Source: Candidatus Latescibacterota bacterium (GTDB taxonomy: Bacteria; Latescibacterota; UBA2968; UBA8231). Taken from it: a DNA stretch of 64,000 nucleotides. Location: positions 128,001 to 192,000 of the forward strand of contig CBDCSU010000006.1 of assembly GCA_965221775.1 (NCBI GenBank). Direction: 5' to 3'. Below, piece after piece: positions 39,493 through 53,864 of this stretch. The notes beneath the pieces are model-generated. The model saw only the letters and a list, made by a program, of their open reading frames with translations. It made no database searches and had not been told where the DNA came from. The position numbers were made by a program, and so were the translations under genes. How positions within the stretch are numbered: position 1 is the stretch's first letter; the number at the start of each line of letters is the position of its first letter.

Positions 39493-42400
39493 TCACCGCA
39501 GCAGGGTCAGCTTGCGCGTCTGCACGGCCTCGGGCGTCACAAGCCGGTACACGTAGATTCCGCTGGCCAGCGGTCGACCCTGGTCGTCGCGACCGTCCCA
39601 GCGCAGGCTGTGGAGGCCCGCCTTCACCGGACCCTCCTGCAGCACGGCGACCTGCTGACCCGTCAGGGCGAACATCTCAAGACGCGCCGGTCCGGACTGC
39701 AGCTGGAACCAGGAGATTACGGTCCCGCTGTTGAAGGGATTTGGCGCGTTCTGTGCCAACTGTGGACCCTCCGGCAGGCCGATCAGCTCCCGGGCCATCG
39801 CCACCAGCTTGGCCCGCGCCGGTTGCCCGAAGTGTTCGGCGAAGAGGAAGAAGTCCGCGAAGTCCACCGTGCCGCTGGCGTCCAGGTCGAACCGGGGGTC
39901 GCTGCTCCCGAAGGCCTCGCTGAAGAGGAAGAAGTCGGAGAAACCGATCTCCCCGTCGCCGTCGAAGTCGGCGGTTGCCCTGGCCGTCGCGGTGAAGGTC
40001 ACGGATTCGTCGAGGCCAGAGACAGTTGCCTCGACTGTGTGAGTCCCCGGCTGGCTTCCGAGTGTCAGCCAACTGGCGACGACGCCGTTCGCATCGGTCG
40101 TGCTGGTGGCAGGAGACATCGTCCCACTGCCGGCGGTGACGACGAAGGTGACGGCCGCCCCTGGTAGTCCCTCCCCATTCTGATCTTTCACTTGAACCAT
40201 GAAGGGATACTCCAACGTGGCGTTGGGCAACCCGTGCTGGTCAAGGCCGGTGAGTATTTCCAGAGTCCGGGCGTACGGTTTCAAGAACTGCACATCCCAT
40301 AGCACGACCGTGCCGTCATCCGACCCGGAAGCGAGCGTTGTCCCATCTGGGGAGAAGGCAACCGTCTGGACCCAACCCACATGCCCTCCCGCCAGAGTGG
40401 CGAGCCATGACTTCCTCTCCACATCCCACAGAATGACTGTTTGATCGTCAGATCCGGAAGCGAGGACGGTGCCATCCGGGGAAAACCGGACCGAGCGGAC
40501 TACGTCATTGTGTCGCCCCCCCAAGGTGGCGGAATGGGTGCCCGCTGCAAGGTCCCACAGCCTGACCGACCCTTGCCAGGAGTACGCCGAGGCCAGAGTT
40601 GCACCATCAGGTGAGAAGGCCACGGAGTAGACTCCATTCCCATGCCCCTCCAGGTTGGCGGTATTGGTGCCCGTGGCTGCATCCCATTGCTTCACAGTGC
40701 CCTCATCCACCGTCGCTGTAGCGATGGCTGCCCCATCTGGTGAAAAGGCCACGGAGCCGGCCCAATGGCCATGGCCCTCCAGGGTGGCGACATTCGTGCC
40801 CGTGGCTACTTCCAGCAGGTCTATGGTACCATCGTGCCTCTCCATTGCGAAGGTTCCCCCGTCGGGCGACACTGCCATGACCGCACTTTCGCCGGACAGG
40901 GTAGAGGAGTTTTCGCGTGTTGCCACGTCCCACATCTTCACCGTGCCCCATGTCCCGGAAACCAGTGTCGTCCCACCGGGCAGAAACCGCAGGAAGTAGA
41001 TGCTGGTCCTGTGCGCGTTCAGGATGGCGGCATGCCTTCCTGTCGCCGGCTCCCACAGGTTGATCGCGTCGCGATAGCCGCCCAAGCTTCCTCCGCCCCC
41101 GGAAGCCAGTTTGGTCCCGTCGGGGGAAAAGGCCACGGTAGCGACGTTGTCCGTGTGCCCGGAGATAGTGGCGGCGCTCTCCGTCGCCAGGTCCCACACC
41201 TTGACCGTATTGTCCCACCTCGACACCGAAGCCAGAGTGGTGCCGTCCTGCGAGAACGCCAGGGAGGAAATCGGACCTGTATGTGCCTCCAGAACAGCGG
41301 TCTCATTGCCCGTCGCCAGATCCCACACCTTGATGATGTCAGCCCAGCCACCGGTAGCGAGCAGCCCCCCGACGGGAGAAGAGGCCAGGACGTCCCCCGC
41401 CGGATCGAGGGTGGCGGTTTCGGTGCCTGTCGCAACGTCCCACAGCTTCACCGTGTTCCCCCCTGAATGGGAAGCCAGGGTTGCGCCATCGGATGAGAAC
41501 GCTACGGACTTGATCCCACCCCCAAGATCCACCAGAGTGGCGGTTCGGGTACCCGTCTCCACGTCCCAGAGTCCGAGCGCGCCGTTGCCTGTACCGGAGG
41601 CGAGCATCGTTCCATCGGGCGAGAACGCCACCGCCTGGATTCCATCCGAGCCCCCTTCCTCTTCCAGGCTGGTCTTGAGCTGACCGGTAGCCACGTCCCA
41701 CAGCCTGACCGTCCCATTCCACAGCCCGCAAGCAAGGATCTTCCCATCGGGCGAGAATACCGCTTCAGAAGCAGTATGTCCCCCGAAGGCAGCGATGACC
41801 TCTCCTGTCGCGATGTTCCACAGCTTGGTCTCTGGTCTCCGATCGTCCGGAGTGGAAGCGAGCAGGCTCCCATCGGGGGAAAAGGTCACCGATCCGAACC
41901 TGTTCTCAGCAGTGGGGAACAAGGCGAGGGGACGGAACGTCGCCACTTCGTACAGCCAGATACCGATGGTGCTCACCAAGGCCAGGCTCTGACCGTCTGG
42001 AGAAAAGACGGCCGCCCTTTCACCTACACTGACGCGTCCCTTTCCCAGGCGCATGATGGCATTCTCGGGCAGGTGCCAGGTCCGGTAATCGCCCTCCCTG
42101 GGGGCGATGGTTCCGACACCCAGTGCATCGAAGGTCACCGGCCCGAGCCCGGAGAGGGAGACTTCAACGGTGTTGATGCCTGGCGTGGGACCGAGCGTGA
42201 GGGTCATCTCGGCCCGGCCATGGACATCGGTGGTTGAGGTCCCCCCATCAGAGCGACCGCCCAGTCTGCCTTCACCTGCGGTGACGACAAAGGTGACCAC
42301 AGCACCCGGCAATGGGAGACCGTACTGATCCCTTACCTCTACCACGTACGGATCTGCCAGGGCTGTACCGGGCGCGGCCTGCTGGTCATCGCCCGATATC

Positions 42401-44430
42401 TTCTCCAGACCGAACGGCCGGGCACTCGTCCATTCGGATGTATCCCACAACTGGATGCTGTGATTCGCCGATCCGGTAGCCAGCGTTGTCCCGTCAGGCG
42501 AGAAAGCGGCGGAGTAGATCGCGTATCCGTCCTCTCGCAGGCTTGGGCGGCTATACGTGCCCGTCACCACGTCCCACAGCCTCACCGTGCCATCCCATGA
42601 CGCGGAAGCCAAGATCGCCCCGCCGGGGGAAAAGGCAACCGCAGCGGCCCTGTGCCTCCTTAGAGTAGCGGTGTCAGAGCCCGAGGCCGGGTCCCAGAAC
42701 CTGATCGTTCCGTCACCGGACCCGGAAGCCAGAATGGCCCCTCTTGGCGAAAAGGCCACTGAAGAGACTCTGTCCGTATGCCCTTCAAGAGTGGCGGTAT
42801 TCGTCTCCGTGGCCACGTCCCACAGTTTCACGGTGCCGTCCCATGATCCCGAAACCAGCTCGGCTCCGTCGGGCGAAAAGGCCACCGACGAGACTCTGTC
42901 CGCATGCCCTTCAAGAGTGGCGGTATTCGTCTCCGCCGCCGCGTCCCACAGTTTCACGGTGCCGTCCCATGATCCCGAAACCAGCTCGGCTCCGTCGGGC
43001 GAAAAGGCCACTGAAGAGACTCTGTCCGCATGCCCTTCAAGAGTGGCGGTATTCGTCTCCGCCGCCGCGTCCCACAGTTTCACGGTGCCGTCCCATGATC
43101 CCGAAACCAGCTCGGCTCCGTCGGGCGAAAAGGCCACCGACGAGACTCCGTCCGCATGCCCTTCAAGAGTGGCGGTATTCGTCTCCGTGGCCACGTCCCA
43201 CAGTCTTATCGTGCCGTCCCCCGACCCGGAAGCGAGCAGGGCTCCGCTTGGGGCAAAGGCCACCGAGTAGACCTCCCCCCCATGTGCTTCGAGGGAACCG
43301 ACATACTGGGAAGAAACCACCATGAGGGTGAAACGGGTTGTGCTCACGTCACCATGGATATCGACGACCCGCACCTGCAAGGGATGCTCAAAATAGAAAC
43401 GGAGATTGTGGCTGAAATCGAATTCGACGACGGCTTCCGTCTCACCGTCCAATACACGACAGTCCCGCACTTCATGCAATCCAGAGGCGGGGCCTTGCAG
43501 CAATCCCCTTGTCGTATTGAAGAGCAGCGCCTGATGGAGTCCATCCGAATCGCTGATCTTCAGGCGGATGGAAGCGCTCTTCGATGATCCCAGCTGGAAG
43601 ATCAAGGACGAAAGAAGCTCGATCGTCGGCGGCGATCCCGATTCAACGGGAATATCGGGGTCGAAGTAGGGACTGACAGCCAGGAACTCCGCATGGCAGG
43701 AAGACAATCGATCCCGTGAGAACCCATACGACAGGATGTACGCGTTGTTCCTGAAATCGTGCCAAGTCAGTCCGAAGGCGTGTGCCAGCTCATGGGCGGC
43801 CGTCTTGAGATCGAATTCCTCCGGGACGATGACCAGCCCCCCGTTCTTTCCGTAGGAGTCAGCCACGCCTGCCACGCCTGCCGTCGTCTGACCTTGAACG
43901 GTGTTATTGATGCTACTGTGGCCATTGTCGATGACGACGAAGTAGATGTTTTTCCTGATATCAAACGTCCCATCGATCTCGGCAAATACGGTACTGGCCG
44001 TATCCTCGAAATAGTAGCTCTCGGCGTGTTGACCATCTAGGCGGTGAACCAGCGGCTCATCTTCGGAATCGGTTTCAATACGGAAGGTCTTGGGTCCGTG
44101 CCCGTGCGCCTCCATCTGCTCGCCGTACCAGGTCTGGATGTGGAGAATCTCCTCCTTCATCTTCTGAACCATCTCTTCGCGATACGGTCGGTCATTCGGC
44201 AGAAAGTAGATCATCCGCACCGTGCGAGGCTCGCCTACCTGCAGGTCTGCCAGCCGCTTGGCCGCAGGGCGGGGCCGATCGAAATCCCACTGCTCGACAT
44301 CGAGAAGCAGGCAGGAATGCGCACTATCGGCCAGCGAGGGCGAAGCATGGACGACCGCCAGCGGGGAGGGGAGGAAGCCCATCAGAGCGAAGAAGGCGGA
44401 ATGAAGAATGGGGAGTCTCATCAGAGTCAC
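39493..44430 (-). CDS. Secreted multidomain protein: zinc metallopeptidase + WD40 propellers + Ig-like domains + EF-hand/dockerin-like + T9SS/FlgD-type C-terminal domain
   Basis: Signal peptide; HELAHAFGLTWH; many VAFSPDG..LASGS.DGTV.LWD repeats; GDDQQ...PYVVEVRD; DFDGDGEIGFSDF; QNAPNPFN...WDGRDDQGRPLASGIYVYRL...RKLTLLR. Confidence 0.88.
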   Translation of the reverse strand: MTLMRLPILHSAFFALMGFLPSPLAVVHASPSLADSAHSCLLLDVEQWDFDRPRPAAKRLADLQVGEPRTVRMIYFLPNDRPYREEMVQKMKEEILHIQTWYGEQMEAHGHGPKTFRIETDSEDEPLVHRLDGQHAESYYFEDTASTVFAEIDGTFDIRKNIYFVVIDNGHSSINNTVQGQTTAGVAGVADSYGKNGGLVIVPEEFDLKTAAHELAHAFGLTWHDFRNNAYILSYGFSRDRLSSCHAEFLAVSPYFDPDIPVESGSPPTIELLSSLIFQLGSSKSASIRLKISDSDGLHQALLFNTTRGLLQGPASGLHEVRDCRVLDGETEAVVEFDFSHNLRFYFEHPLQVRVVDIHGDVSTTRFTLMVVSSQYVGSLEAHGGEVYSVAFAPSGALLASGSGDGTIRLWDVATETNTATLEGHADGVSSVAFSPDGAELVSGSWDGTVKLWDAAAETNTATLEGHADRVSSVAFSPDGAELVSGSWDGTVKLWDAAAETNTATLEGHADRVSSVAFSPDGAELVSGSWDGTVKLWDVATETNTATLEGHTDRVSSVAFSPRGAILASGSGDGTIRFWDPASGSDTATLRRHRAAAVAFSPGGAILASASWDGTVRLWDVVTGTYSRPSLREDGYAIYSAAFSPDGTTLATGSANHSIQLWDTSEWTSARPFGLEKISGDDQQAAPGTALADPYVVEVRDQYGLPLPGAVVTFVVTAGEGRLGGRSDGGTSTTDVHGRAEMTLTLGPTPGINTVEVSLSGLGPVTFDALGVGTIAPREGDYRTWHLPENAIMRLGKGRVSVGERAAVFSPDGQSLALVSTIGIWLYEVATFRPLALFPTAENRFGSVTFSPDGSLLASTPDDRRPETKLWNIATGEVIAAFGGHTASEAVFSPDGKILACGLWNGTVRLWDVATGQLKTSLEEEGGSDGIQAVAFSPDGTMLASGTGNGALGLWDVETGTRTATLVDLGGGIKSVAFSSDGATLASHSGGNTVKLWDVATGTETATLDPAGDVLASSPVGGLLATGGWADIIKVWDLATGNETAVLEAHTGPISSLAFSQDGTTLASVSRWDNTVKVWDLATESAATISGHTDNVATVAFSPDGTKLASGGGGSLGGYRDAINLWEPATGRHAAILNAHRTSIYFLRFLPGGTTLVSGTWGTVKMWDVATRENSSTLSGESAVMAVSPDGGTFAMERHDGTIDLLEVATGTNVATLEGHGHWAGSVAFSPDGAAIATATVDEGTVKQWDAATGTNTANLEGHGNGVYSVAFSPDGATLASAYSWQGSVRLWDLAAGTHSATLGGRHNDVVRSVRFSPDGTVLASGSDDQTVILWDVERKSWLATLAGGHVGWVQTVAFSPDGTTLASGSDDGTVVLWDVQFLKPYARTLEILTGLDQHGLPNATLEYPFMVQVKDQNGEGLPGAAVTFVVTAGSGTMSPATSTTDANGVVASWLTLGSQPGTHTVEATVSGLDESVTFTATARATADFDGDGEIGFSDFFLFSEAFGSSDPRFDLDASGTVDFADFFLFAEHFGQPARAKLVAMARELIGLPEGPQLAQNAPNPFNSGTVISWFQLQSGPARLEMFALTGQQVAVLQEGPVKAGLHSLRWDGRDDQGRPLASGIYVYRLVTPEAVQTRKLTLLR
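42749..43252 (-). repeat. Four near-identical 126-bp WD40-encoding tandem repeats
   Basis: Units start at 42749, 42875, 43001 and 43127. Confidence 0.93.
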
Positions 44431-44731: not shown

Positions 44732-47002
44732 TCAGAGCCTGATCCGCTTCAGTCTCAATGAGTTCACAATCACGCTGACGGAGCTTACGGCCATCGCTCC
44801 CGCCGCCAGTATGGGGTTGAGAAATCCGAACTCCCCGAGTACCGGGCGAAGCGCCTCCGGTACTCCCTGGGCCGCGAAAACGGGATACAGGACCCCTGCC
44901 GCAACGGGAATCAGCGCGACGTTGTAGGCAAACGCCCAGAACAGGTTCTGCCGGATGGTTCTCATCGTCGCCCTGCTGACGGAGATCGCACGGGCCACGC
45001 CCATGACGTCCCCATGGATGAGGGTTATGTCCGCCGCCTCCATGGCGATGTCGGTTCCCGTGGCTACCGCGATGCCCACGTCCGCCCGCGCCAGGGCCGG
45101 CGCATCGTTCATGCCGTCTCCGACCATGGCCACCACCGTCCCGTCCTCTTGCAGGGCCGCAATGTGGTCGGCCTTGTCCGCCGGCAGCACCTCGGCGATG
45201 ACCTTCTCCATGCCGAGGGAGCGGGCCACCGCCTCGGCCGTCCGTCGACTGTCTCCGGTCAGCATGAGCACGTCAACCCCCTGGCCCCTCAGCGAGGCCA
45301 GGGCGTCCTCGATCCCCTCCTTGACCGTATCGGAGACGGCGACCACGCCCATGACCTCGCCGTCGACGGCCACGTAGGAGACCGTCTTCGCCGAGCGTGC
45401 CAGCTCCTGGCCGGTCTCCACGAGGCTGTTCATGGGGACCCCGGCCTCCTCGTGGAGTCGGAGGCTTCCCACCGCGATGTGGCGGTCGTCCACTTCACCC
45501 ACGATGCCCATTCCCGGCACCGCCCTGGATGTGCGCACCGGGGCTTCCACGGGAAGACCCCGCTCCTGCGCCGCGGCGGCGATCGCCCTCCCCACGGGAT
45601 GCTCGGAGGCGCGTTCGAGTCGGCCCGCCAGGGTCAGGAGCTCGTTCTCGGTGAGTCCACCCGCGACGATGTCGGTCACCTTCGGAACGCCCGTGGTCAG
45701 CGTGCCCGTCTTGTCCAGCACCACGACCTCGGTCTCATGGGCCCGCTCCAGGGTCTCGGCGCTGCGAATCAGCACCCCCGACTCCGCGGCCCGGCCCGTG
45801 CCCACCATGATCGCCGTCGGCGTGGCCAGTCCCATGGCGCAGGGGCAGGCGATGATCAGCACGGCGACGGCCGCTGCCATGGCGTAGACATGGGACGGAG
45901 CAGGCCCGACGGAAAGCCAGAGGAGGAAGACGACCGCTGCCACGGCGATGACGGCGGGGACGAACCAACTCGATACAACGTCCGCCAGTCTCTGTACGGG
46001 CGCCCGCGATCCCTGTGCTTCTTCCACCAGCCGGACGATCCGCGCCAGCAGGGTGTCCGCGCCGACTCCCACCGCTTCGAGGGTCAGGCTCCCCGTCGTG
46101 TTGATCGTCGCTCCGTAGACCTCGTCGTTCTCCCCCTTGCGCACCGGCATGCTCTCGCCCGTCAGCAAGGACTCGTCGACCCAGGAAGCGCCGGCCGCCA
46201 CCCTGCCATCCACCGGAATGCGCTCTCCGGGGAGAACCCGGACCTGCTCGCCGACCCCGACATCTTCGATCGGAACCTCCACTTCACTGCCGCCGCGTAT
46301 GACCCTGGCCCGCTCGGGGCGCAGGCGCAGGAGGGCCTTGATCGCTTCGGACGCCCGGCCCTTGGCCCGGGCTTCCAGGTATCGGCCGAGAAGCACAAGG
46401 CCGATGATCGCGGTCGAGGTCTCGAAGAAGGTCGCGGCTTCGTAGTGGGCGAAAGCCGAAGCATGGGGAAAGAGGGTGACAGCGGCGCTGTACGCGTAGG
46501 CCACGGTCGTACCGACCGTGATGAGCGTGTTCATGTTGCTCGTGCCTCGCCGCAGGGCCTTCCACGCCCCGACGTAGAACCCTCTCCCGGCCCAGAACTG
46601 CACGGGGGTGGCGAGGATGAGCAGCAGGATGTCCAGGCGGACGGGCAGAGCTGCGAGCAGGGACGGCACCTTGGGCAGCAACATGACGACCGCCGCAGCC
46701 CCGAGGCTGAAAGCCATCTCTCCGCGAATCCCGGCGGTCTGTCCCCGGTTCACCGAAGCGTCCTCACCTGTACCCACCTCCAGCACCGAGTACCCCTCGT
46801 CCTCGACGGCGGATCGGAGGTCCTCGATGCCGGCCAGCTCCGCCCTGTAGCGAACGGTGGCCCGCTCGGTCGCCAGGTTCACGGCCGCGGATTCCACTCC
46901 CTCGACGCCGCGCAGCGCTGCCTCGACATGGCCGACGCACGCGGCGCAGCTCATGCCGCCGACGTTCAGGGTGATGGTCGTGGGGTCGCCGGTCGGAGTC
47001 AT
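44732..47002 (-). CDS. copA: Copper-translocating P1B-type ATPase
   Basis: [36 protein letters not shown] and MAVSS. Confidence 0.93.
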
Positions 47003-47019: not shown

Positions 47020-47361
47020 TCATTGGAAGTACTTCGCCATGATCAGCTCCTTGATCTCCTCGATGTCCTTTCCCTCGTGGTGCCACTTGAAGGCGTCACG
47101 GCCCTCTTCGTTGCACTGCCGTCAGGTGGGGGGACAGCCTCCCTCGTAGCACCAGGAAAGGCTCTGGTTGCAGCAGGCGCACGGCACCTGGCTCACGACC
47201 TCCGGGATCTCCCTCAGCAAGGTCTGGTAGAGGGCGAGTCCGTCCGGAGGCAGGGGAGGCGGCTGGCCTTGCCCCTGCAGGAGGTAGCTGCCGACGGCCA
47301 GCACAGCAACGACCGCCGCCGTGACGATGGCGGCTTTCCCTTTGGTCATCACGCGTTTCAT
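47020..47361 (-). CDS. Probable selenoprotein, PCYCGC-like membrane-anchored Cys-rich protein (113 aa, Sec80)
   Basis: ATGA-coupled to cusA; VPCACC...WC...GCPPT-UGA-RQCNEEGRDAFKWHHEGKDIEEIKELIMAKYFQ*. The read-through fills the gap exactly to the copA RBS. Confidence 0.75.
47080..47121 (-). promoter_or_regulatory. Candidate bacterial SECIS hairpin
   Basis: Upper stem GAGGGC/GCCUUC with loop CGUGAC, 21 nt after the UGA; lower stem GUGC/GCAC. Confidence 0.55.
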
Positions 47362-50300
47362 GGGGCTGTCTCCTTCTCGGGGCTGTGTGTATCCGTTGTC
47401 GGTTCCGTGCCACTGTCCATCTGCCGCCCGCGCCACAACGCGTAGACCGCCGGCAGCACCAGCAGCGCCAGAAGGGTGGCCGTCGCCAGCCCTCCCACCA
47501 TGGGCGCCGCGATCCGCTTCATCACCTGCGACCCGGTGCCGGTGGCCCACATGATCGGCAGCAACCCGCCCACCGTCGAACCCACGGTCATGAAGATCGG
47601 CCGCACGCGCCGGGAGGCGCCTTCGACGATGGCGGCAACAAGATCCGCCCGGTCCCGGAGCCGGCCCTCCTCGCGGCGGCTTTCGAGCGCCTGGTCGAGA
47701 TATGTCAGCATCACCACCCCCAACTCGGCGCTGACACCCGCGAGGGCGATGAACCCGACGCCCACGGCGACGCTCATGTTGTAGTCCAGGATGTAGATGA
47801 GCCAGATCCCGCCGACCAGCGCGAAGGGCAGCGTGAGCATCACCATCAGACTTTCGGCGACGCTGCGGAAGTGGAGGAAGAGGAGCAGGAAGATGATGGC
47901 CAGGGTCACCGGGACGACGAGGCTCAGCCGCTCCTTGGCCCTCTCCATGTATTCGTACTGGCCGCTCCAGATCAGGCTGTATCCCTGGGGCAGGTCGATC
48001 TCCTCCGCCACGATCTGGCGGGCGCCCTCGACGTAGGTGCCCACGTCGACGTCGCGGATGTCGACGTAGACCCAGGCGTTGAGGCGGGCGTTCTCGCTCT
48101 TGATGCCGGGCGGCCCCTTGCGGATGCGCAGGTCGGCGACCTGCCCGATGGGGATCTGCGCCCCGGTGGGCGTGGCCACCAGGACCCGCCGCAGGGCGGG
48201 CAGGTTGTCGCGCAGCTCGCGCCCGTAGCGCAGGTTCACCGGGTAGCGCTCGCGGCCCTCCACGGTGTGGGTGATGTTCATTCCGCCCATGGCCGACAGG
48301 ATCACCTCCTGCACGTCCCCCACGGTCAGGCCGTAGCGCCCCGCCTCCTCGCGGTCGATCTCGAAGTCGACGTAGTTGCCGCCGGCGACCCGCTCGGCGT
48401 AGACGCTGGCCGTGCCCGGGATCTCGCGCACCACCTGCTCGATCCGCCGGCCCACCTCCTCGAGGGTTTTCAGATCGTCGCCGGCCACCTTGATCCCCAC
48501 GGGGGTCTTGATGCCGGTGGAGAGCATGTCGATGCGCGTCTTGATCGGCATCGTCCAGGAGTTGGTCAGCCCCGGGAAGCGTACGGCGCGGTCCAGCTCC
48601 TCCACCAGCCTCTCCGGGGTGATGCCCGGCCGCCATTCGTCCTGGGGCCGCAGGGTGATGGTGGTCTCGATCATCGACAGCGGCGCCGGGTCGGTGGCGG
48701 TCTCGGCGCGGCCGATCTTGCCGAAGACGTTCTCCACCTCCGGGAAGGTGCGGATGATGCGGTCGGTCTGCTGCAGCAGCTCCCGCGCCTTGGTCACGGA
48801 CACCCCCGGCAGGGTGGTCGGCATGTAGAGCAGGTCCCCCTCGTACAGGGGCGGCATGAACTCCGAGCCGATCTGCTCCAGGGGAAAGAGTTGCTGCAGG
48901 CGTGACAGCGCAGTGTGCGCCAGGCTCCCGGGCCGGTCGGCGAAGCGCTCCACCACCACGCTGCGGAAGGGGAAGACGGAGACGAACATCACCGCGGCGG
49001 CGGCGGCCAGGGTCGCCGCCTTGTGGCGCAGCAGCCAGTCGAGGACCGGCACGTATCCTCGCGTCAGGCCGCGGTTGAGCGGATTACGGTCGGCGTCCAC
49101 CACCCGGCCCCGCAGGCAGAAGCCGATGAGCACCGGCACCACCGTGATCGACAGGATGGCGGCGGCGGCCATGGCGTAGGTCTTGGTGTAGGCCAGGGGC
49201 TTGAAGAGCCGCCCTTCCTGCGCCTCCAGGGTGAAGACGGGCAGGAAGGAGAGGGTGACGATCAGCAGCGAGTAGAACAGCGCCGGCCCCACCTCCTTGG
49301 AGGCGGCGGCGATGCTGGCCCAGTGGTCCTTGCGCCCCCGGTCCCGCGCCAGGTGGCGGTGGGCGTTCTCGATCTGCACGATGCCGGCGTCGACCATGGC
49401 GCCCACGGCGATGGCGATCCCCCCGAGGGACATGATGTTGGCGTTGATCCCCTGGCCCCACATGACGATGAAGGAGACGAGGATGCCCAGGGGCAGGGTG
49501 AAGACGGCGGCGAAGGCGCTGCGGAAGTGGAGCAGGAAGAGGCCGCAGACGGCGGCCACCACGAGGCACTCCTCCACCAGCTTCTCGCGCAGGTGGCCCA
49601 CGGCGCGGCGGATGAGGCCGGAGCGGTCGTAGGCGGTCTCCACCACCACCCCTTCCGGCAGCCCGTCCTGCAACTCGGCGAGCCTCGCCTTGACGGCGTC
49701 GATCACGGCGAGGGCGTTCTCGCCGTAGCGCATGACCACGATGCCGCCGGCCACCTCGCCCTCGCCGTTCCACTCCGCCAGGCCGCGGCGCAGCTCCGGC
49801 CCCACCTGCACGGTGGCGATGTCCCGCACCCGCACCGGGGTCCCGGAGCGGCCGGCGCTCACGGGCACGCTGCGGATGTCCTCGAGGGACTGGATGTAGC
49901 CGAGGCCGCGCACCATGAACTCGGTCTCGGCCAGCTCGATGAGACGGCCGCCGACGTCGTTGTTGCTGCGCTGGATGGCGCGTTTCACCTGCTGCAGCGA
50001 GATCCCGTAGGCCAGCAGCTTGTTGGGATCGACGGTCACCTGGTACTGCTTGACGAAGCCGCCGACGCTGGCCACCTCGGCGACGCCGGGCACGCTGGTC
50101 AGCTCGTAGCGCAGGTACCAGTCCTGGATCGAGCGCAGCTCGGCGAGGTCGCGGCGGCCGCTGGTGTCGACGAGGGCGTACTCGTAGACCCAGCCGACGC
50201 CGGTGGCGTCGGGACCGAGCCGCGGCTGCACCCCCTCGGGCAGGCGGTCGCCGGCGAAGCTCAGGTACTCGAGGACGCGGCTGCGCGCCCAGTACATGTC

Positions 50301-50603
50301 GGTGCCGTCCTCGAAGATGACGTAGACGAAGGAGAGGCCGAAGAAGGAGTACCCGCGAACCGCCTTGGCGTAGGGCACGGCGAGCATCGCCGTGCTCAGC
50401 GGAAACGTCACCTGGTCCTCCACCACCTGGGGCGCCTGCCCCGGGTACTCGGTGAGGACGATCACCTGCACGTCCGACAGGTCGGGGATCGCGTCGAGGG
50501 GGGTCCTGGACATGGCGAGGAAGCCGGCGCCGGCGGCCAGCAGGGTCACCAGCACGGTGAGCAGCTTGTTGCCGACGCAGGCCTCGATGATGCGGCCGAT
50601 CAT
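47358..50603 (-). CDS. cusA: CusA/CzcA heavy-metal RND efflux permease
   Basis: LDAIPDLSDVQVI, YWARSRVLEYL, GSEFMPPLYEGDLLYMP, WTMPIKTRIDML, MKRIAAPMVGG. Confidence 0.95.
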   Translation of the reverse strand: MIGRIIEACVGNKLLTVLVTLLAAGAGFLAMSRTPLDAIPDLSDVQVIVLTEYPGQAPQVVEDQVTFPLSTAMLAVPYAKAVRGYSFFGLSFVYVIFEDGTDMYWARSRVLEYLSFAGDRLPEGVQPRLGPDATGVGWVYEYALVDTSGRRDLAELRSIQDWYLRYELTSVPGVAEVASVGGFVKQYQVTVDPNKLLAYGISLQQVKRAIQRSNNDVGGRLIELAETEFMVRGLGYIQSLEDIRSVPVSAGRSGTPVRVRDIATVQVGPELRRGLAEWNGEGEVAGGIVVMRYGENALAVIDAVKARLAELQDGLPEGVVVETAYDRSGLIRRAVGHLREKLVEECLVVAAVCGLFLLHFRSAFAAVFTLPLGILVSFIVMWGQGINANIMSLGGIAIAVGAMVDAGIVQIENAHRHLARDRGRKDHWASIAAASKEVGPALFYSLLIVTLSFLPVFTLEAQEGRLFKPLAYTKTYAMAAAAILSITVVPVLIGFCLRGRVVDADRNPLNRGLTRGYVPVLDWLLRHKAATLAAAAAVMFVSVFPFRSVVVERFADRPGSLAHTALSRLQQLFPLEQIGSEFMPPLYEGDLLYMPTTLPGVSVTKARELLQQTDRIIRTFPEVENVFGKIGRAETATDPAPLSMIETTITLRPQDEWRPGITPERLVEELDRAVRFPGLTNSWTMPIKTRIDMLSTGIKTPVGIKVAGDDLKTLEEVGRRIEQVVREIPGTASVYAERVAGGNYVDFEIDREEAGRYGLTVGDVQEVILSAMGGMNITHTVEGRERYPVNLRYGRELRDNLPALRRVLVATPTGAQIPIGQVADLRIRKGPPGIKSENARLNAWVYVDIRDVDVGTYVEGARQIVAEEIDLPQGYSLIWSGQYEYMERAKERLSLVVPVTLAIIFLLLFLHFRSVAESLMVMLTLPFALVGGIWLIYILDYNMSVAVGVGFIALAGVSAELGVVMLTYLDQALESRREEGRLRDRADLVAAIVEGASRRVRPIFMTVGSTVGGLLPIMWATGTGSQVMKRIAAPMVGGLATATLLALLVLPAVYALWRGRQMDSGTEPTTDTHSPEKETAP

Positions 50604-50604
50604 C

Positions 50605-51975
50605 TCAGGTGCCCTCCCCCAGGGAGCTGACCGCCGCCTTCAGGTTGCTCTCCGAATCGATGAGGAACTGCGCCGAGGTGACGATCCGCTCCCCCTCGCG
50701 CAGGCCCTCGAGGACCTCGTAGAGACCTTCCGCCTCGGCGCCGACGCGGATCTCCCGCGGCTGGAAGCGGCCCTCCCCGAGGCTGACCACGGCCAGGCGG
50801 CGGGGCCCCGAGTGGATCACCGCCTGCACCGGCACCGTGAGGACGCTGTCCGCCGGCAGCGGCGACTGGATGGTGACGTTGGCGTACATCTCCGGCTTCA
50901 GCTCCAGCTCCGGGTTGGCGAAGGTCATGCGCACCTTCACGGTGCGCGTCTCCGGCTCGAGGAAGGGGTAGACGTAGGTCACCTTCCCGGTGAAGCTCTG
51001 GCCCGGCAGGTAGGACAACTCGACCTCGGCCTCCTGGCCCTCCCGCACCCACGGCAGCTCGTACTCGTAGATGTCGGCGTAGACCCACACCCGCGACAAC
51101 TCGGCGATGCGGTAGAGGTGCTGCCCCGGGCCGATGTGCTGGCCGTCGTAGACCGCCTTGTGGACCACCGTGCCCTGCTGGGGCGAGTCCACGGTCATGG
51201 TGCGCCGCACCTCGCCCGTCTGCCGCAGCTCCTCGATCTGGCGGTCGCTGATGTCCCAGTAGCGCAGCCGCTGCAGCGCCGCCGACAGCAGGTCCCGCGC
51301 CCCGGCCGCGGCCTCGCCCCCGGCGCCGGCCCGCAGCCGCTCGCTGTAGTCGACGGCGGTGAGGTACTCCTCCTGGGCGGCCACCAGCTCCGGGCTGTAT
51401 ATCTGCAGCAGGGGCTCCCCCTTCTCCACCATCTGCCCCGTGTAGTCGACGAAGAGCTTCTCCACCCAGCCGGCGATCTTGGTGTTGACGTCGGTCATGC
51501 GGGTCTCGTCGTAGTCGACGCGGCCCACGGTGCGCACCGTGCGGTGCAGCGTGCGCCGCTCCACCGGCGCCGTCCGGACGCCGATGTTCTGCACCGTCGC
51601 CGGGTCGATGGTCACGGTACCCTCGGCCTGCAGCTCGTCCTCGTAGACCGGCACCAGGTCCATGCCCATGGGCGACTTCCCCGGCTCGTGGGAGGTGTAC
51701 GACGGGTCCATCGGCGCCCGCCAGTAGGCGATGGCGCGCTCACCGTCCGATGCGCTGTCCCCGGCCGGCTTGTCGGGCACCAGGTCCATGCCGCAGACCG
51801 GACAGCTCCCCGGCCCCTCGGAGACGACGGTGGGGTGCATGGGACAGCGGTGGACCTCTGCCTCTTCCTCGTGGGCGTGCATCGCTGCCCCGCCGGCGCC
51901 TCCCAGCCAGAGGCCGAGGGCGGTGCCGGCAGCCAGCGACAGGATCACGGCGATCGCGTATTTCCACATGGTCAT
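50605..51975 (-). CDS. cusB: CusB-type RND periplasmic adaptor with heavy-metal-binding domains
   Basis: CPMHP...CPVCGMDL, YWRAPMDP...PGKSPMGMDL, YSPELVAAQEEY, FLIDSES. Confidence 0.92.
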   Translation of the reverse strand: MTMWKYAIAVILSLAAGTALGLWLGGAGGAAMHAHEEEAEVHRCPMHPTVVSEGPGSCPVCGMDLVPDKPAGDSASDGERAIAYWRAPMDPSYTSHEPGKSPMGMDLVPVYEDELQAEGTVTIDPATVQNIGVRTAPVERRTLHRTVRTVGRVDYDETRMTDVNTKIAGWVEKLFVDYTGQMVEKGEPLLQIYSPELVAAQEEYLTAVDYSERLRAGAGGEAAAGARDLLSAALQRLRYWDISDRQIEELRQTGEVRRTMTVDSPQQGTVVHKAVYDGQHIGPGQHLYRIAELSRVWVYADIYEYELPWVREGQEAEVELSYLPGQSFTGKVTYVYPFLEPETRTVKVRMTFANPELELKPEMYANVTIQSPLPADSVLTVPVQAVIHSGPRRLAVVSLGEGRFQPREIRVGAEAEGLYEVLEGLREGERIVTSAQFLIDSESNLKAAVSSLGEGT

Positions 51976-51984
51976 CCTCCGCGC

Positions 51985-53247
51985 TCAGAAGAGCCGCCGG
52001 CCGACGACGGACTCCAGGTGGGCCAGGCTCTTCTCGTACTGCGTCAAGTGGCGGTGGTAGTCGATCTCGAAGTCGAGCAGCGTCATCTGGTTGTCCAGCA
52101 GGGTGAGGAAGTCGACCTCGTCCACCTGGTAGCCGGCGACCGCCGCGGCCAGGGACTGGTCGGCCTGGGGGATGATGACGTCCCGGAAGAGGGCCATCTC
52201 CTGCAGGTGGGTCCGGGCGTCGACGTGCAACTCCTCGATCCGCAGGGCCAGCTCGCGGACCTGGGCCTCGATGCGGGCCTCGGCCTCGCGGACCCTCGCC
52301 CTCGCCTCGGCGACCTTGGAGTCCTGCTTGCGCCCCTGGTGGACGGGCAGGGTCAGCATCACCCCGACGGAGAAGAAGTCGCTCCCCGAGACGGGATCGT
52401 TCTCGAAGCCGCGCTGGCGCCAGCCGGCGTTCACCAAGAAGTCGGGACGGCGGTCGAGGACGGCCAGCTCCTCGGCGGCGCGCCAGCGCTCACGGCCTTC
52501 GTGCAGTCCCTTCAGCAGCGGCCGTTCATCGAGGGCCAGGTCCAGCAGCTGCACCGCCTCGAAGTCGAGGGGCGTCTGCTCCCGCGCCGGGGTGGGGCCC
52601 ACCGGTTCCCGGGGGTCCCGGTCCAGCAGGGTGTTGAGCCGCGCCGCCGTGCGCCGGCGCTCCCCCTCCATGTGCAGCAGCCGCCGCCGCAGGCCGGACA
52701 GCGACACCTGGGCCTTGAGCACGTCCTGCTGCGGCACTCGCCCCACGGAGTACTTCGTCTGCGCGATGCGCACGAAGTCCCGCAGCAGGGCCCGGTTGTT
52801 CTCGGTGATGGCGATCGAGCGGTCGAGGAGGTCCAGGTCGAAGTAGGCCTGCTTCACCAGGTTGACGACGGTCCCCTCGCGCTCCTGCCGGGCGGCCTCG
52901 GCGGCGGCGGCGGCGTGGCTGGCGGCGCGCTCCCGGGCGGCGCGCTTGCCCGGGTACGGCAGCTTCTGGGAGAGCGTGACCTGGCGGCCGCTCATGGGCG
53001 AGCCGTCGATGTCGAGGGGGCGGAAGGGGACGTTGCTCAGCTCCACCTTCAGCCCCGGGTCCGGCAGGGCCCCGGCCGCCGGGACCCCGGCCTGGGCCGC
53101 GGCGGCGCTGTGCTTCAGCACCTGCAGCGACAGGTTGGAGGTGAGGGCCTCCTCGATGAGGAGGTCGAGGTCGAGGTCGGGTGTTTCCGCGGCGGCTGCG
53201 GCGGCGGCCAGGGTCATGACCGCGGCGCAGGTGATTCTCCGGTGCAT
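51985..53247 (-). CDS. TolC/CusC-family outer membrane efflux protein
   Basis: GALPDP, SQKLPYPGK, VKQAYFDL, DVLKAQV, DFLTLLD. Confidence 0.9.
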   Translation of the reverse strand: MHRRITCAAVMTLAAAAAAAETPDLDLDLLIEEALTSNLSLQVLKHSAAAAQAGVPAAGALPDPGLKVELSNVPFRPLDIDGSPMSGRQVTLSQKLPYPGKRAARERAASHAAAAAEAARQEREGTVVNLVKQAYFDLDLLDRSIAITENNRALLRDFVRIAQTKYSVGRVPQQDVLKAQVSLSGLRRRLLHMEGERRRTAARLNTLLDRDPREPVGPTPAREQTPLDFEAVQLLDLALDERPLLKGLHEGRERWRAAEELAVLDRRPDFLVNAGWRQRGFENDPVSGSDFFSVGVMLTLPVHQGRKQDSKVAEARARVREAEARIEAQVRELALRIEELHVDARTHLQEMALFRDVIIPQADQSLAAAVAGYQVDEVDFLTLLDNQMTLLDFEIDYHRHLTQYEKSLAHLESVVGRRLF

Positions 53248-53368: not shown

Positions 53369-53749
53369 TCAGATCAGGTAGATGCCGTGGAGGGCGTAGA
53401 GGGGGAGCCTTGCGGCCCCGGGCGGAGTCCGCGGTTCAAGAGGCTTGAGGTCCGCGGCGCCGAGGGCCCGGCCGGTCGTGCCCGCCAGGGGAATGGCGGG
53501 GAACCCGTGGCCGGAAGGAAGGACCTGGTCGGCGGCCTCGGGGGAAGGAGACGAGTCACCGGCGCAGGCCAGGGCCGGGCAGCAGGAGCAGTCGGCCCCG
53601 AGCTGCGGCGCATCGGCCGCCGGGGGCGCGTGGCACCCGGGGGCCGCCGCCGCCAGCGCGCAGGGGGCGCAGTCCGCCGAAGCGGCGACGCTGCTGGCCG
53701 GCAGCGCGGCGACGAGCACTGCCAGCGCGATGATTCGGGCGATTCTCAT
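53369..53749 (-). CDS. Cys-rich exported small protein upstream of the efflux operon (DUF2946/CruR-like candidate)
   Basis: Signal peptide, CAPC, CH, CSCC..C, and C-terminal PRTPP...LPLYALHGIYLI. Confidence 0.55.
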   Translation of the reverse strand: MRIARIIALAVLVAALPASSVAASADCAPCALAAAAPGCHAPPAADAPQLGADCSCCPALACAGDSSPSPEAADQVLPSGHGFPAIPLAGTTGRALGAADLKPLEPRTPPGAARLPLYALHGIYLI

Positions 53750-53864
53750 CTCGACTCCGGTCATGGCCAATATGCCCGGACCGCCGACGTTCCGCAACCG
53801 GGGCGGTTCCTGCGGAGGCGGGGCTCGGATGGGAGTTATGCGGACGACTGTCCCGGCCACAACG

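Follow-up and report, generated by a model that had tools for sequence, protein, structure and literature searches.

A probable selenoprotein of the PCYCGC/CYCXC superfamily encoded between cusA and copA in a Latescibacterota genome

An in-frame UGA codon between cusA and copA

We analysed a 64,000-nt stretch of DNA from a Candidatus Latescibacterota bacterium (GenBank assembly GCA_965221775.1, contig CBDCSU010000006.1, positions 128,001 to 192,000 of the forward strand; hereafter the window) together with the genome to which it belongs (G000; 5.36 Mb, 96.8% complete). On the minus strand of the window, a small gene at 47361..47020, which lies between homologues of the copper-efflux genes cusA and copA, is interrupted by an in-frame TGA, and comparison with related sequences indicates that its product is very probably a selenoprotein. 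We propose that UGA80 would be read as selenocysteine (Sec) by the SelA, SelB, tRNA-Sec and SelD of the same organism, and that this decoding would be directed by a hairpin within the coding region, immediately 3′ of the UGA (47116-47080). This kind of selenoprotein is known; what is new is the divergent clade to which the gene belongs, its predicted selenocysteine insertion sequence (SECIS) and its consistent copper-efflux context.

An earlier note, made from the letters of the window alone, had described a gene coupled to cusA that appears to stop at TGA 47122-47124 but continues in frame to a TGA at 47020, with the first TGA opening a U-R-Q-C motif. All of these elements are found in the sequence. 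The ATG at 47361 shares the tetranucleotide ATGA with the TGA stop of cusA; the in-frame TGA (47124-47122) is codon 80, and beyond it 33 codons (RQCNEEGRDAFKWHHEGKDIEEIKELIMAKYFQ) run up to the TGA at 47022-47020. The read-through product begins with a basic N-terminus, followed by a 19-residue hydrophobic segment, and a Pro-rich linker leads on to a Cys domain with conserved Cys/Sec residues at C61, C63, C64, C71, C76, U80 and C83 and the motif U80-R-Q-C83. An equivalent N-terminal hydrophobic segment is present in all homologues.

We searched the read-through product against 61 genomes (G000 and relatives; E ≤ 0.01), of which 16 gave a match. Nine genomes, G000 included, match over nearly the full length at 63-99% identity, with a single TGA in the same column, and four genomes of the same genus have an uninterrupted form with Cys that is 37-43% identical to the read-through product. 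Weak matches in G031, G060 and G008 and at a second place in G002 (E 9.5e-4 to 9e-3) were dropped, their translations lacking the cysteine framework. Scanning 168 genomes of the phylum with the NCBIfam model NF041379 gave matches in 16, all from one family-level group, 12 with one TGA and 4 without; a pattern scan of the genome contigs likewise gave 16 loci, comprising 12 Sec forms and 4 Cys forms. Overall there are 12 distinct Sec-form sequences, 58-99% identical at the protein level, and every one of them keeps both the TGA and the tail that follows it. The consensus of all Sec forms is CP(P/x)(T/S/L)-U-x-x-C-N-(E/N/D/Q)-E-G-R-(D/A)-A-F and that of all Cys forms is CP(V/L)(S/N)-C-G-P-C-N-(E/Q)-Q-G-K. 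The UGA column aligns with an invariant Cys, both in the Cys forms and in members of the Pfam family PF13798 (PCYCGC). The selenoprotein proposed in the earlier note is thus borne out by relatives that retain the UGA and a conserved tail, and by Cys homologues that align at position 80.

For ten diverged Sec forms, we calculated the ratio of nonsynonymous to synonymous substitution rates (dN/dS; Nei-Gojobori method) on either side of the UGA. The median was 0.139 for the 32 codons of the tail after the UGA (18 of 45 pairs computable, the rest being saturated) and 0.166 for the 43 codons before it (23 of 45 pairs computable). We conclude that the tail is under purifying selection, as judged from its codon substitutions, and that selection treats it as coding sequence.

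These results bear directly on a simpler explanation, namely that the TGA is a true stop, that the functional product has 79 residues, and that the 33 downstream codons are an untranslated spacer before copA. Public gene calls fit such a stop: we identified 29 near homologues in a set of 5.8 billion proteins and fetched 16, of which 14 terminate directly ahead of the UGA, one (P0003) carries on through it with W and one is truncated earlier, and the same end point is found in 23 of 106 representatives (see below). Where the source gives a name for the near homologues, it is ‘hypothetical protein’. Moreover, TGA is an ordinary stop elsewhere in G000, terminating both cusA and the selenoprotein gene itself. 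However, all 12 distinct Sec forms conserve the tail and its frame, with a dN/dS of about 0.14; the Cys forms run continuously through the UGA column; the tail holds the second Cys of an invariant CxxC and a conserved C-terminal helix; and the full Sec machinery is present. We consider a true stop very improbable.

Alternatively, the TGA might have arisen by recent nonsense mutation or through an error of assembly, or might encode Trp or Gly under an altered genetic code. Two database entries favour this explanation, P0003 with its W and a partial entry with G at the position (P0052). The W in P0003 most simply reflects a gene call made under a table in which TGA encodes W. P0052 (56 aa), which is close to the Sec forms and reads CPFT-G-RECNDEGRDAF, may owe its Gly to a sequencing variant, to a GGA codon or to an artefact of gene calling. 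Against recoding or mutation, the identical TGA occurs in 12 independently assembled and diverged sequences (58-99% protein identity), which excludes an assembly error; neighbouring genes are terminated by TGA; a tRNA-Sec with anticodon tca is present; and the homologous residue is Cys, not Trp. We therefore give this explanation next to no weight, and retain Sec decoding as the preferred reading of the UGA.

The Sec genes named in the earlier note as worth looking for, selA, selB, selC and selD, are all present in G000. selA (489 bits), selB (matched in its C-terminal wing domain) and the tRNA-Sec gene selC (75 bits; identified by ARAGORN as tRNA-SeC with anticodon tca) lie side by side on contig C6, and a selD homologue (353 bits) lies outside the window at C5:959676-960599 (locus L033). 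The selD homologue has one in-frame TGA of its own, which indicates that the Sec system is in use; SelD is probably itself a selenoprotein in this organism. SelA was detected in all 10 genomes checked, of which four have the Cys form, five have the Sec form and one has no detected homologue of the gene. Since SelA is common to Cys-form and Sec-form genomes, the choice between Cys and Sec is not set by the machinery, and loss of the machinery does not account for the Cys forms.

Both forms occur within a single genus: the Sec form in G000, G002, G004 and G007 (L015-L018) and the Cys form in G001, G003, G005 and G009 (L024-L027). No genome of that genus was seen with both, and SelA is present throughout. 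Rather than recent exchanges of Sec and Cys, the two forms resemble long-diverged alternatives, either alleles or paralogues. The genomes of loci L051-L066, all from one family-level group, carry submitter labels as different as Latescibacterota, Gemmatimonadaceae, Ignavibacteria and Planctomycetota, which suggests that these metagenome-assembled genomes are inconsistently labelled in their taxonomy.

A SECIS-like hairpin 3′ of the UGA

In bacterial SECIS (bSECIS) elements, the UGA and the apical loop are separated by 16-37 nt, and a G is found among the first two bases of the loop. The earlier note had pointed to a hairpin, GAGGGC-CGUGAC-GCCUUC, 21 nt downstream of the UGA. This hairpin is present, and the figure of 21 nt fits the distance to the apical loop, with the first base of the upper stem at 15 nt. 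It belongs to the minimum-free-energy fold of the single sequence, and RNAalifold returned the same structure, which includes an additional lower stem (see Table 1), from nine and then from twelve distinct sequences. The apical loop is CGUGAY in 10 of the 12 sequences, and CGGGAU and CGUGCU in one each. As far as can be read from the aligned sequences, the spacing and the loop G agree with the bSECIS criteria, such that a conserved SECIS-like element lies 3′ of the UGA at a distance typical of bacteria, as the earlier note had suggested.

Two features of the alignment argue for selection on the hairpin. First, standard pairs fill 95.8% of 144 cells, compared with 32-49% after shifting the 3′ partner by 1-3 columns, and compensatory changes are seen at two pairs of the lower stem, one turning from G-C into A-U and the other from C-G into U-A, each in three sequences. 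Second, in an independent and more informative test, 30 columns with a degenerate codon encode the same amino acid in all 12 Sec forms; of these, 17 precede the UGA and 13 follow it. Synonymous variation occurs in all 17 upstream columns and in nine of the downstream columns: AAY +4, GAR +6 (both variants pair with U), CGT/CGG +8 (11 to 1), +17, +23, +27, +30, +31 and +32. The four codons without synonymous change (TGC +3, GGC +7, GCC +10 and TTC +11) all fall within the hairpin stems. This restriction of frozen synonymous sites to the hairpin is what selection at the RNA level would predict.

Several points weigh against the selenoprotein reading. The fold of the single sequence is unremarkable (z = -0.64; 45 of 200 shuffles were as stable or better), and the significance of the hairpin hence rests on comparison with related sequences. 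The structure scored for pairing had been derived from the very sequences tested. The upper stem shows no covariation, having five invariant pairs and one A-U/G-U pair, so that its support comes from the frozen synonymous sites rather than from compensatory change. Rfam contains no family for the hairpin and gave only four chance matches (E ≥ 1.4). Lastly, the part of the reading that is established is the comparative signature of Sec decoding, and the incorporation of selenium itself lies beyond that signature.

Family membership and predicted fold

The only NCBIfam match of the read-through product is to NF041379 (‘OS_HP4_CYCXC, CYCXC family (seleno)protein’; E 6.5e-10), with residues 49-111 aligned to profile positions 21-89. 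We built a profile from an alignment of 16 sequences (A2) and searched it against 1.84 billion representatives (E ≤ 0.001), which matched 106 proteins. Besides the 23 that break off directly ahead of the Sec position, these comprise 51 assigned to the full-length Cys forms and 32 others; the latter are mostly Cys forms outside the pattern, and also include a tail-only open reading frame (ORF; P0066), the partial entry with Gly and a few long, unrelated proteins. When ten of the 106 were scanned, four passed the PF13798 cut-off (P0037, P0063, P0065 and P0068) and all ten matched NF041379 at up to 73.5 bits, short of its cut-off. In a joint alignment, the Sec column corresponds to the first Cys of the invariant CxxC of the superfamily, the invariant Cys columns being 61, 63, 64, 71, 80 and 83, and the tail carries the second Cys of that CxxC and the conserved C-terminal helix. 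The resemblance to PCYCGC proteins seen in the earlier note, in which a helical tail comes after a late CxxC, is thereby upheld. We conclude that, on the evidence of this alignment, the gene represents a divergent clade of the PCYCGC/CYCXC (OS_HP4) superfamily, with Sec at the position where known Sec forms reportedly have it; that it is a Sec-containing member of the superfamily is, in our judgement, quite probable.

The scores against the existing models count on the other side. The match to NF041379 has 38.9 bits, under the equivalog cut-off of 90, which none of the 168 genomes of the phylum reaches, and the match to PF13798 is confined to the tail (11.7 bits, E 0.25; gathering cut-off 25 bits). 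The CYCxC motif of NF041379 is absent, all Sec forms having P-C-A-C-C (CxCC). A single Sec in UxxC is present, and the equivalence of its column with that of NF041379 was established via the Cys relatives only. Because the clade falls so far under the NF041379 cut-off, its genes are called as ‘hypothetical proteins’ of 71-127 residues that end at the UGA.

The earlier note had called the gene a hidden selenoprotein. This holds for annotation, in which gene calls stop at the UGA, but not for the literature, in which CYCXC/OS_HP4, NF041379 and its UxxC already appear. Two reviews list CYCXC/OS_HP4 as a UxxC selenoprotein family (PMC13188914, PMC9312934), and the first of these, from 2026, connects it with PF13798. 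The ‘OS_HP’ names originate in a study of Olavius symbionts, the available passages of which list OS_HP1-3, with OS_HP4 not among them (PMC1976440).

AlphaFold2, run on A2 (domain only, 77 residues), gave a model of five helices with a predicted local distance difference test score of 97.4 and a predicted template modelling score of 0.86. In this model, Sec directly precedes the fourth helix (U at domain position 44, helix 45-59). The protein would thus join a membrane anchor or signal peptide at its N-terminus to a small domain built entirely of helices, with the pattern CxCC...C....C...UxxC, that is, six conserved Cys and a Sec, the Sec taking the place of the first Cys of the invariant CxxC. 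We infer that the hydrophobic segment, which follows a basic N-terminus, is a signal anchor or signal peptide, with the topology given by the positive-inside rule. PCYCGC relatives are annotated as lipoproteins (PMC13068155, in the passages available), and this annotation and the N-terminal segment together place the domain outside the cytoplasm, where it would face the periplasm.

Copper neighbourhood and comparison with known systems

The copper-efflux neighbours described in the earlier note were confirmed with Pfam, which identified cusA and copA on either side of the selenoprotein gene and also cusB and cusC further upstream (Table 1). Between cusA and copA, a consensus scan detected nothing resembling a promoter, nor anything resembling a terminator on the coding strand, which agrees, at the level of such a scan, with a single transcript. 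Two further ORFs on the minus strand adjoin these genes. The first (53369-53860; 163 residues), just upstream of cusC, has no Pfam match and may belong to the operon as a regulator or accessory gene. The second (39493-44430; 1645 residues), directly downstream of copA, is full of WD40/beta-propeller repeats (WD40 545.8 bits, at least 10 repeats) and is of unusual size for a bacterium.

Table 1 Features of the selenoprotein gene, its putative SECIS-like hairpin and its neighbours in the window
Feature	Position	Strand	Basis or detail
Selenoprotein gene	47020..47361	(-)	113 residues + terminal TGA
UGA codon 80, read as selenocysteine (proposed); first residue of U-R-Q-C	47122..47124	(-)	
N-terminal hydrophobic segment, residues about 10-28, AAIVTAAVVAVLAVGSYLL	47278..47334	(-)	Read off translation
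Cys/Sec-rich helical domain, residues 37-113	47023..47253	(-)	Alignment A2, AlphaFold2 model, NF041379 match over residues 49-111
SECIS-like hairpin	47080..47116	(-)	RNAalifold consensus, pairing statistics, frozen synonymous sites
Lower stem, six pairs	47116-47110 with 47086-47080	(-)	
Upper stem, six pairs, GAGGGC/GCCUUC	47106-47101 with 47094-47089	(-)	
Apical loop CGUGAC	47100-47095	(-)	
cusC-like outer membrane factor	51985..53247	(-)	PF02321 (OEP)
cusB-like membrane fusion protein with heavy-metal-binding domains	50605..51975	(-)	PF16576 (HlyD_D23) + PF19335 (HMBD)
cusA-like resistance-nodulation-division (RND) permease, directly upstream of selenoprotein gene	47358..50603	(-)	PF00873 (ACR_tran), 749.7 bits
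copA-like P1B-type ATPase with N-terminal HMA domain	44732..47002	(-)	PF00122, PF00702 (E1-E2 ATPase), PF00403 (HMA)

Homologues of cus genes or copA occur within the 4-kb flanks of 12 of the 16 loci, that is, 9 of the 12 Sec forms and 3 of the 4 Cys forms. The order cusA, selenoprotein gene, copA is found only in G000 and three near relatives, L016-L018 (the same loci as L051, L052 and L062). Elsewhere among the Sec forms, cusA precedes the gene, in some cases separated from it by a DUF3347 gene, and one locus has cusCBA downstream. The intervening DUF3347 protein (PF11827) is encoded at L056:3110-3724 and L059:3164-3739. This distribution is relevant to a further suggestion of the earlier note, that read-through could couple copA expression to selenium supply. 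Such coupling is not supported, since the gene order that it requires is confined to these few close relatives. The stop of the selenoprotein gene lies 17 nt from the copA ATG (47002), and the Shine-Dalgarno-like GAGAGG 11 nt upstream of that ATG is copA's own.

A second, distant set of copper genes accompanies the Cys-form PF13798 protein P0065, which matched 28 plasmid records, all from Burkholderiaceae. In all five of the plasmid regions inspected, the PCYCGC gene lies inside a copper island that encodes an RND permease, a ‘copper-binding protein’, DsbD, CueR, a multicopper oxidase, HiPIP and a P-II-like protein, and in one region also TlpA reductases and SCO. As a separate observation, a small gene annotated as ‘P-II family nitrogen regulator’ regularly follows the PCYCGC gene at these loci (L067-L071), often together with DUF2933, multicopper oxidase and HiPIP genes, and this looks like a conserved module. 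A copper link for PCYCGC, CYCXC or OS_HP4 was not found in the full-text literature, which offered only table listings and one lipoproteome note; supplements and subscription journals were outside the scope of the search.

The earlier note had proposed a metal-binding or redox partner of CusCBA/CopA, a role that gene neighbourhood and motif logic suggest. From the same indications, we consider a copper-related role likely: the protein would act with CusCBA and CopA in the detoxification of copper or silver. Within such a role, it would most likely bind Cu(I) through thiolate/selenolate ligands, so as to buffer it or hand it on to the Cus pump, filling the niche that CusF (PF11604) occupies elsewhere; no CusF was detected in G000. 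Cu(I) binding or hand-off in particular, rather than redox chemistry, is a tentative assignment to which we give slightly less than an even chance.

Four observations tell against these functional proposals. Four of the 16 loci have no copper gene nearby, their neighbours being a rhamnosidase-like protein, a cyclase, a histidine kinase and PhyH. Nor do the five plasmid regions count as independent, since they are interrelated. The Burkholderiaceae islands hold both CusF-like and PCYCGC proteins, so that the two are not simple alternatives. Finally, a Foldseek search of the PDB with the AlphaFold2 model gave no match at E ≤ 0.001, and its top match, although weak, was the periplasmic domain of CcmH (2hl7; E 0.75, template modelling score 0.58, 14% identity), followed by 2kw0 (E 2.0). 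A CcmH match of this kind would point to redox chemistry over metal binding.

We therefore weighed a serious rival to the Cu(I) buffer or hand-off function, in which the same selenoprotein is an extracytoplasmic selenol/thiol-disulfide oxidoreductase of the copper-stress response, with UxxC as its redox centre and no carriage of copper. Such an enzyme might repair wrong disulfides induced by copper, keep the cysteines of partner proteins reduced, or convert Cu(II) to Cu(I) for export. A CxxC placed right before a helix is typical of redox CxxC proteins, and the predicted position of U44 immediately before helix 45-59 conforms to this arrangement. In addition, the CcmH periplasmic domains are the only structural matches of note, and DsbD is encoded in all five PCYCGC plasmid regions, with the TlpA reductases and SCO of one region in the same vein. 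Most UxxC selenoproteins are oxidoreductases (PMC2398784, in the passages available). However, the fold match is not significant, and seven conserved Cys/Sec positions exceed the needs of a redox pair. No DsbD-type gene (PF02683) lies beside the selenoprotein gene, the sole match in G000 being on another contig, and the gene overlaps cusA so tightly, at ATGA, as to suggest a stoichiometric partner of the pump. On balance, we regard the oxidoreductase as less likely than not.

A broader and more speculative possibility, doubtful on present indications, is that the whole PCYCGC/CYCXC superfamily is an extracytoplasmic copper-handling module, either a Cu(I) buffer or hand-off protein or a copper-stress selenol/thiol reductase, with the Sec clade replacing CusF in the cusCBA-copA operons of this lineage. 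If this were true, selenium supply would be a determinant of copper and silver tolerance. The copper placement of the family in two distant bacterial groups (Cus pumps, CopA, CueR, multicopper oxidase and DsbD) provides its first testable functional hypothesis. For annotation, a subfamily model would recover the members of the clade that are now miscalled at the UGA. For chemistry, natural Sec and Cys versions within one genus offer a clean comparison of what selenium contributes at an extracytoplasmic metal or redox site.

Among the closest known families is CYCXC/OS_HP4 (NF041379), which is likewise a small protein with an N-terminal hydrophobic segment and a single Sec in UxxC, and which, like the clade described here, has no function assigned in print. 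The clade differs in having CxCC rather than CYCxC, an extra conserved Cys, C76, in the CPPT that precedes Sec, and the cus/copA operon setting. With PCYCGC proteins (PF13798), it shares the six aligned columns C61, C63, C64, C71, U80 and C83, the G..I helical tail, a predicted extracytoplasmic location and an association with copper genes, in their case the islands of Burkholderiaceae plasmids. Those proteins, however, have Cys rather than Sec, are longer (about 120-190 aa), contain an inserted loop, and are lipoproteins rather than signal-anchored.

The parallel with CusF, the periplasmic Cu(I)/Ag(I) chaperone of CusCFBA, lies in proposed working only: each is a small extracytoplasmic protein encoded within a cusCBA-type operon, but the two have no relationship of sequence or fold. 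CusF is a beta-barrel with Met, His and Trp as ligands, whereas the protein described here is helical in the AlphaFold2 model and rich in Cys/Sec. The CcmH periplasmic domain (2hl7, 2kw0) is also small, helical, membrane-anchored and equipped with a CxxC; the match to it is not significant, though, and the locus has no heme-lyase or cytochrome c maturation context. Other metal-handling proteins with Sec include CopZ-like 2Fe-2S, MerP/MerT-like, SO_0444 Cu/Zn efflux and E1-E2 ATPase proteins, in which Sec may be a metal ligand, according to the available passages of the 2026 review (PMC13188914). These belong to unrelated families and none is a partner of CusCBA, but they provide a precedent for Sec in heavy-metal resistance.

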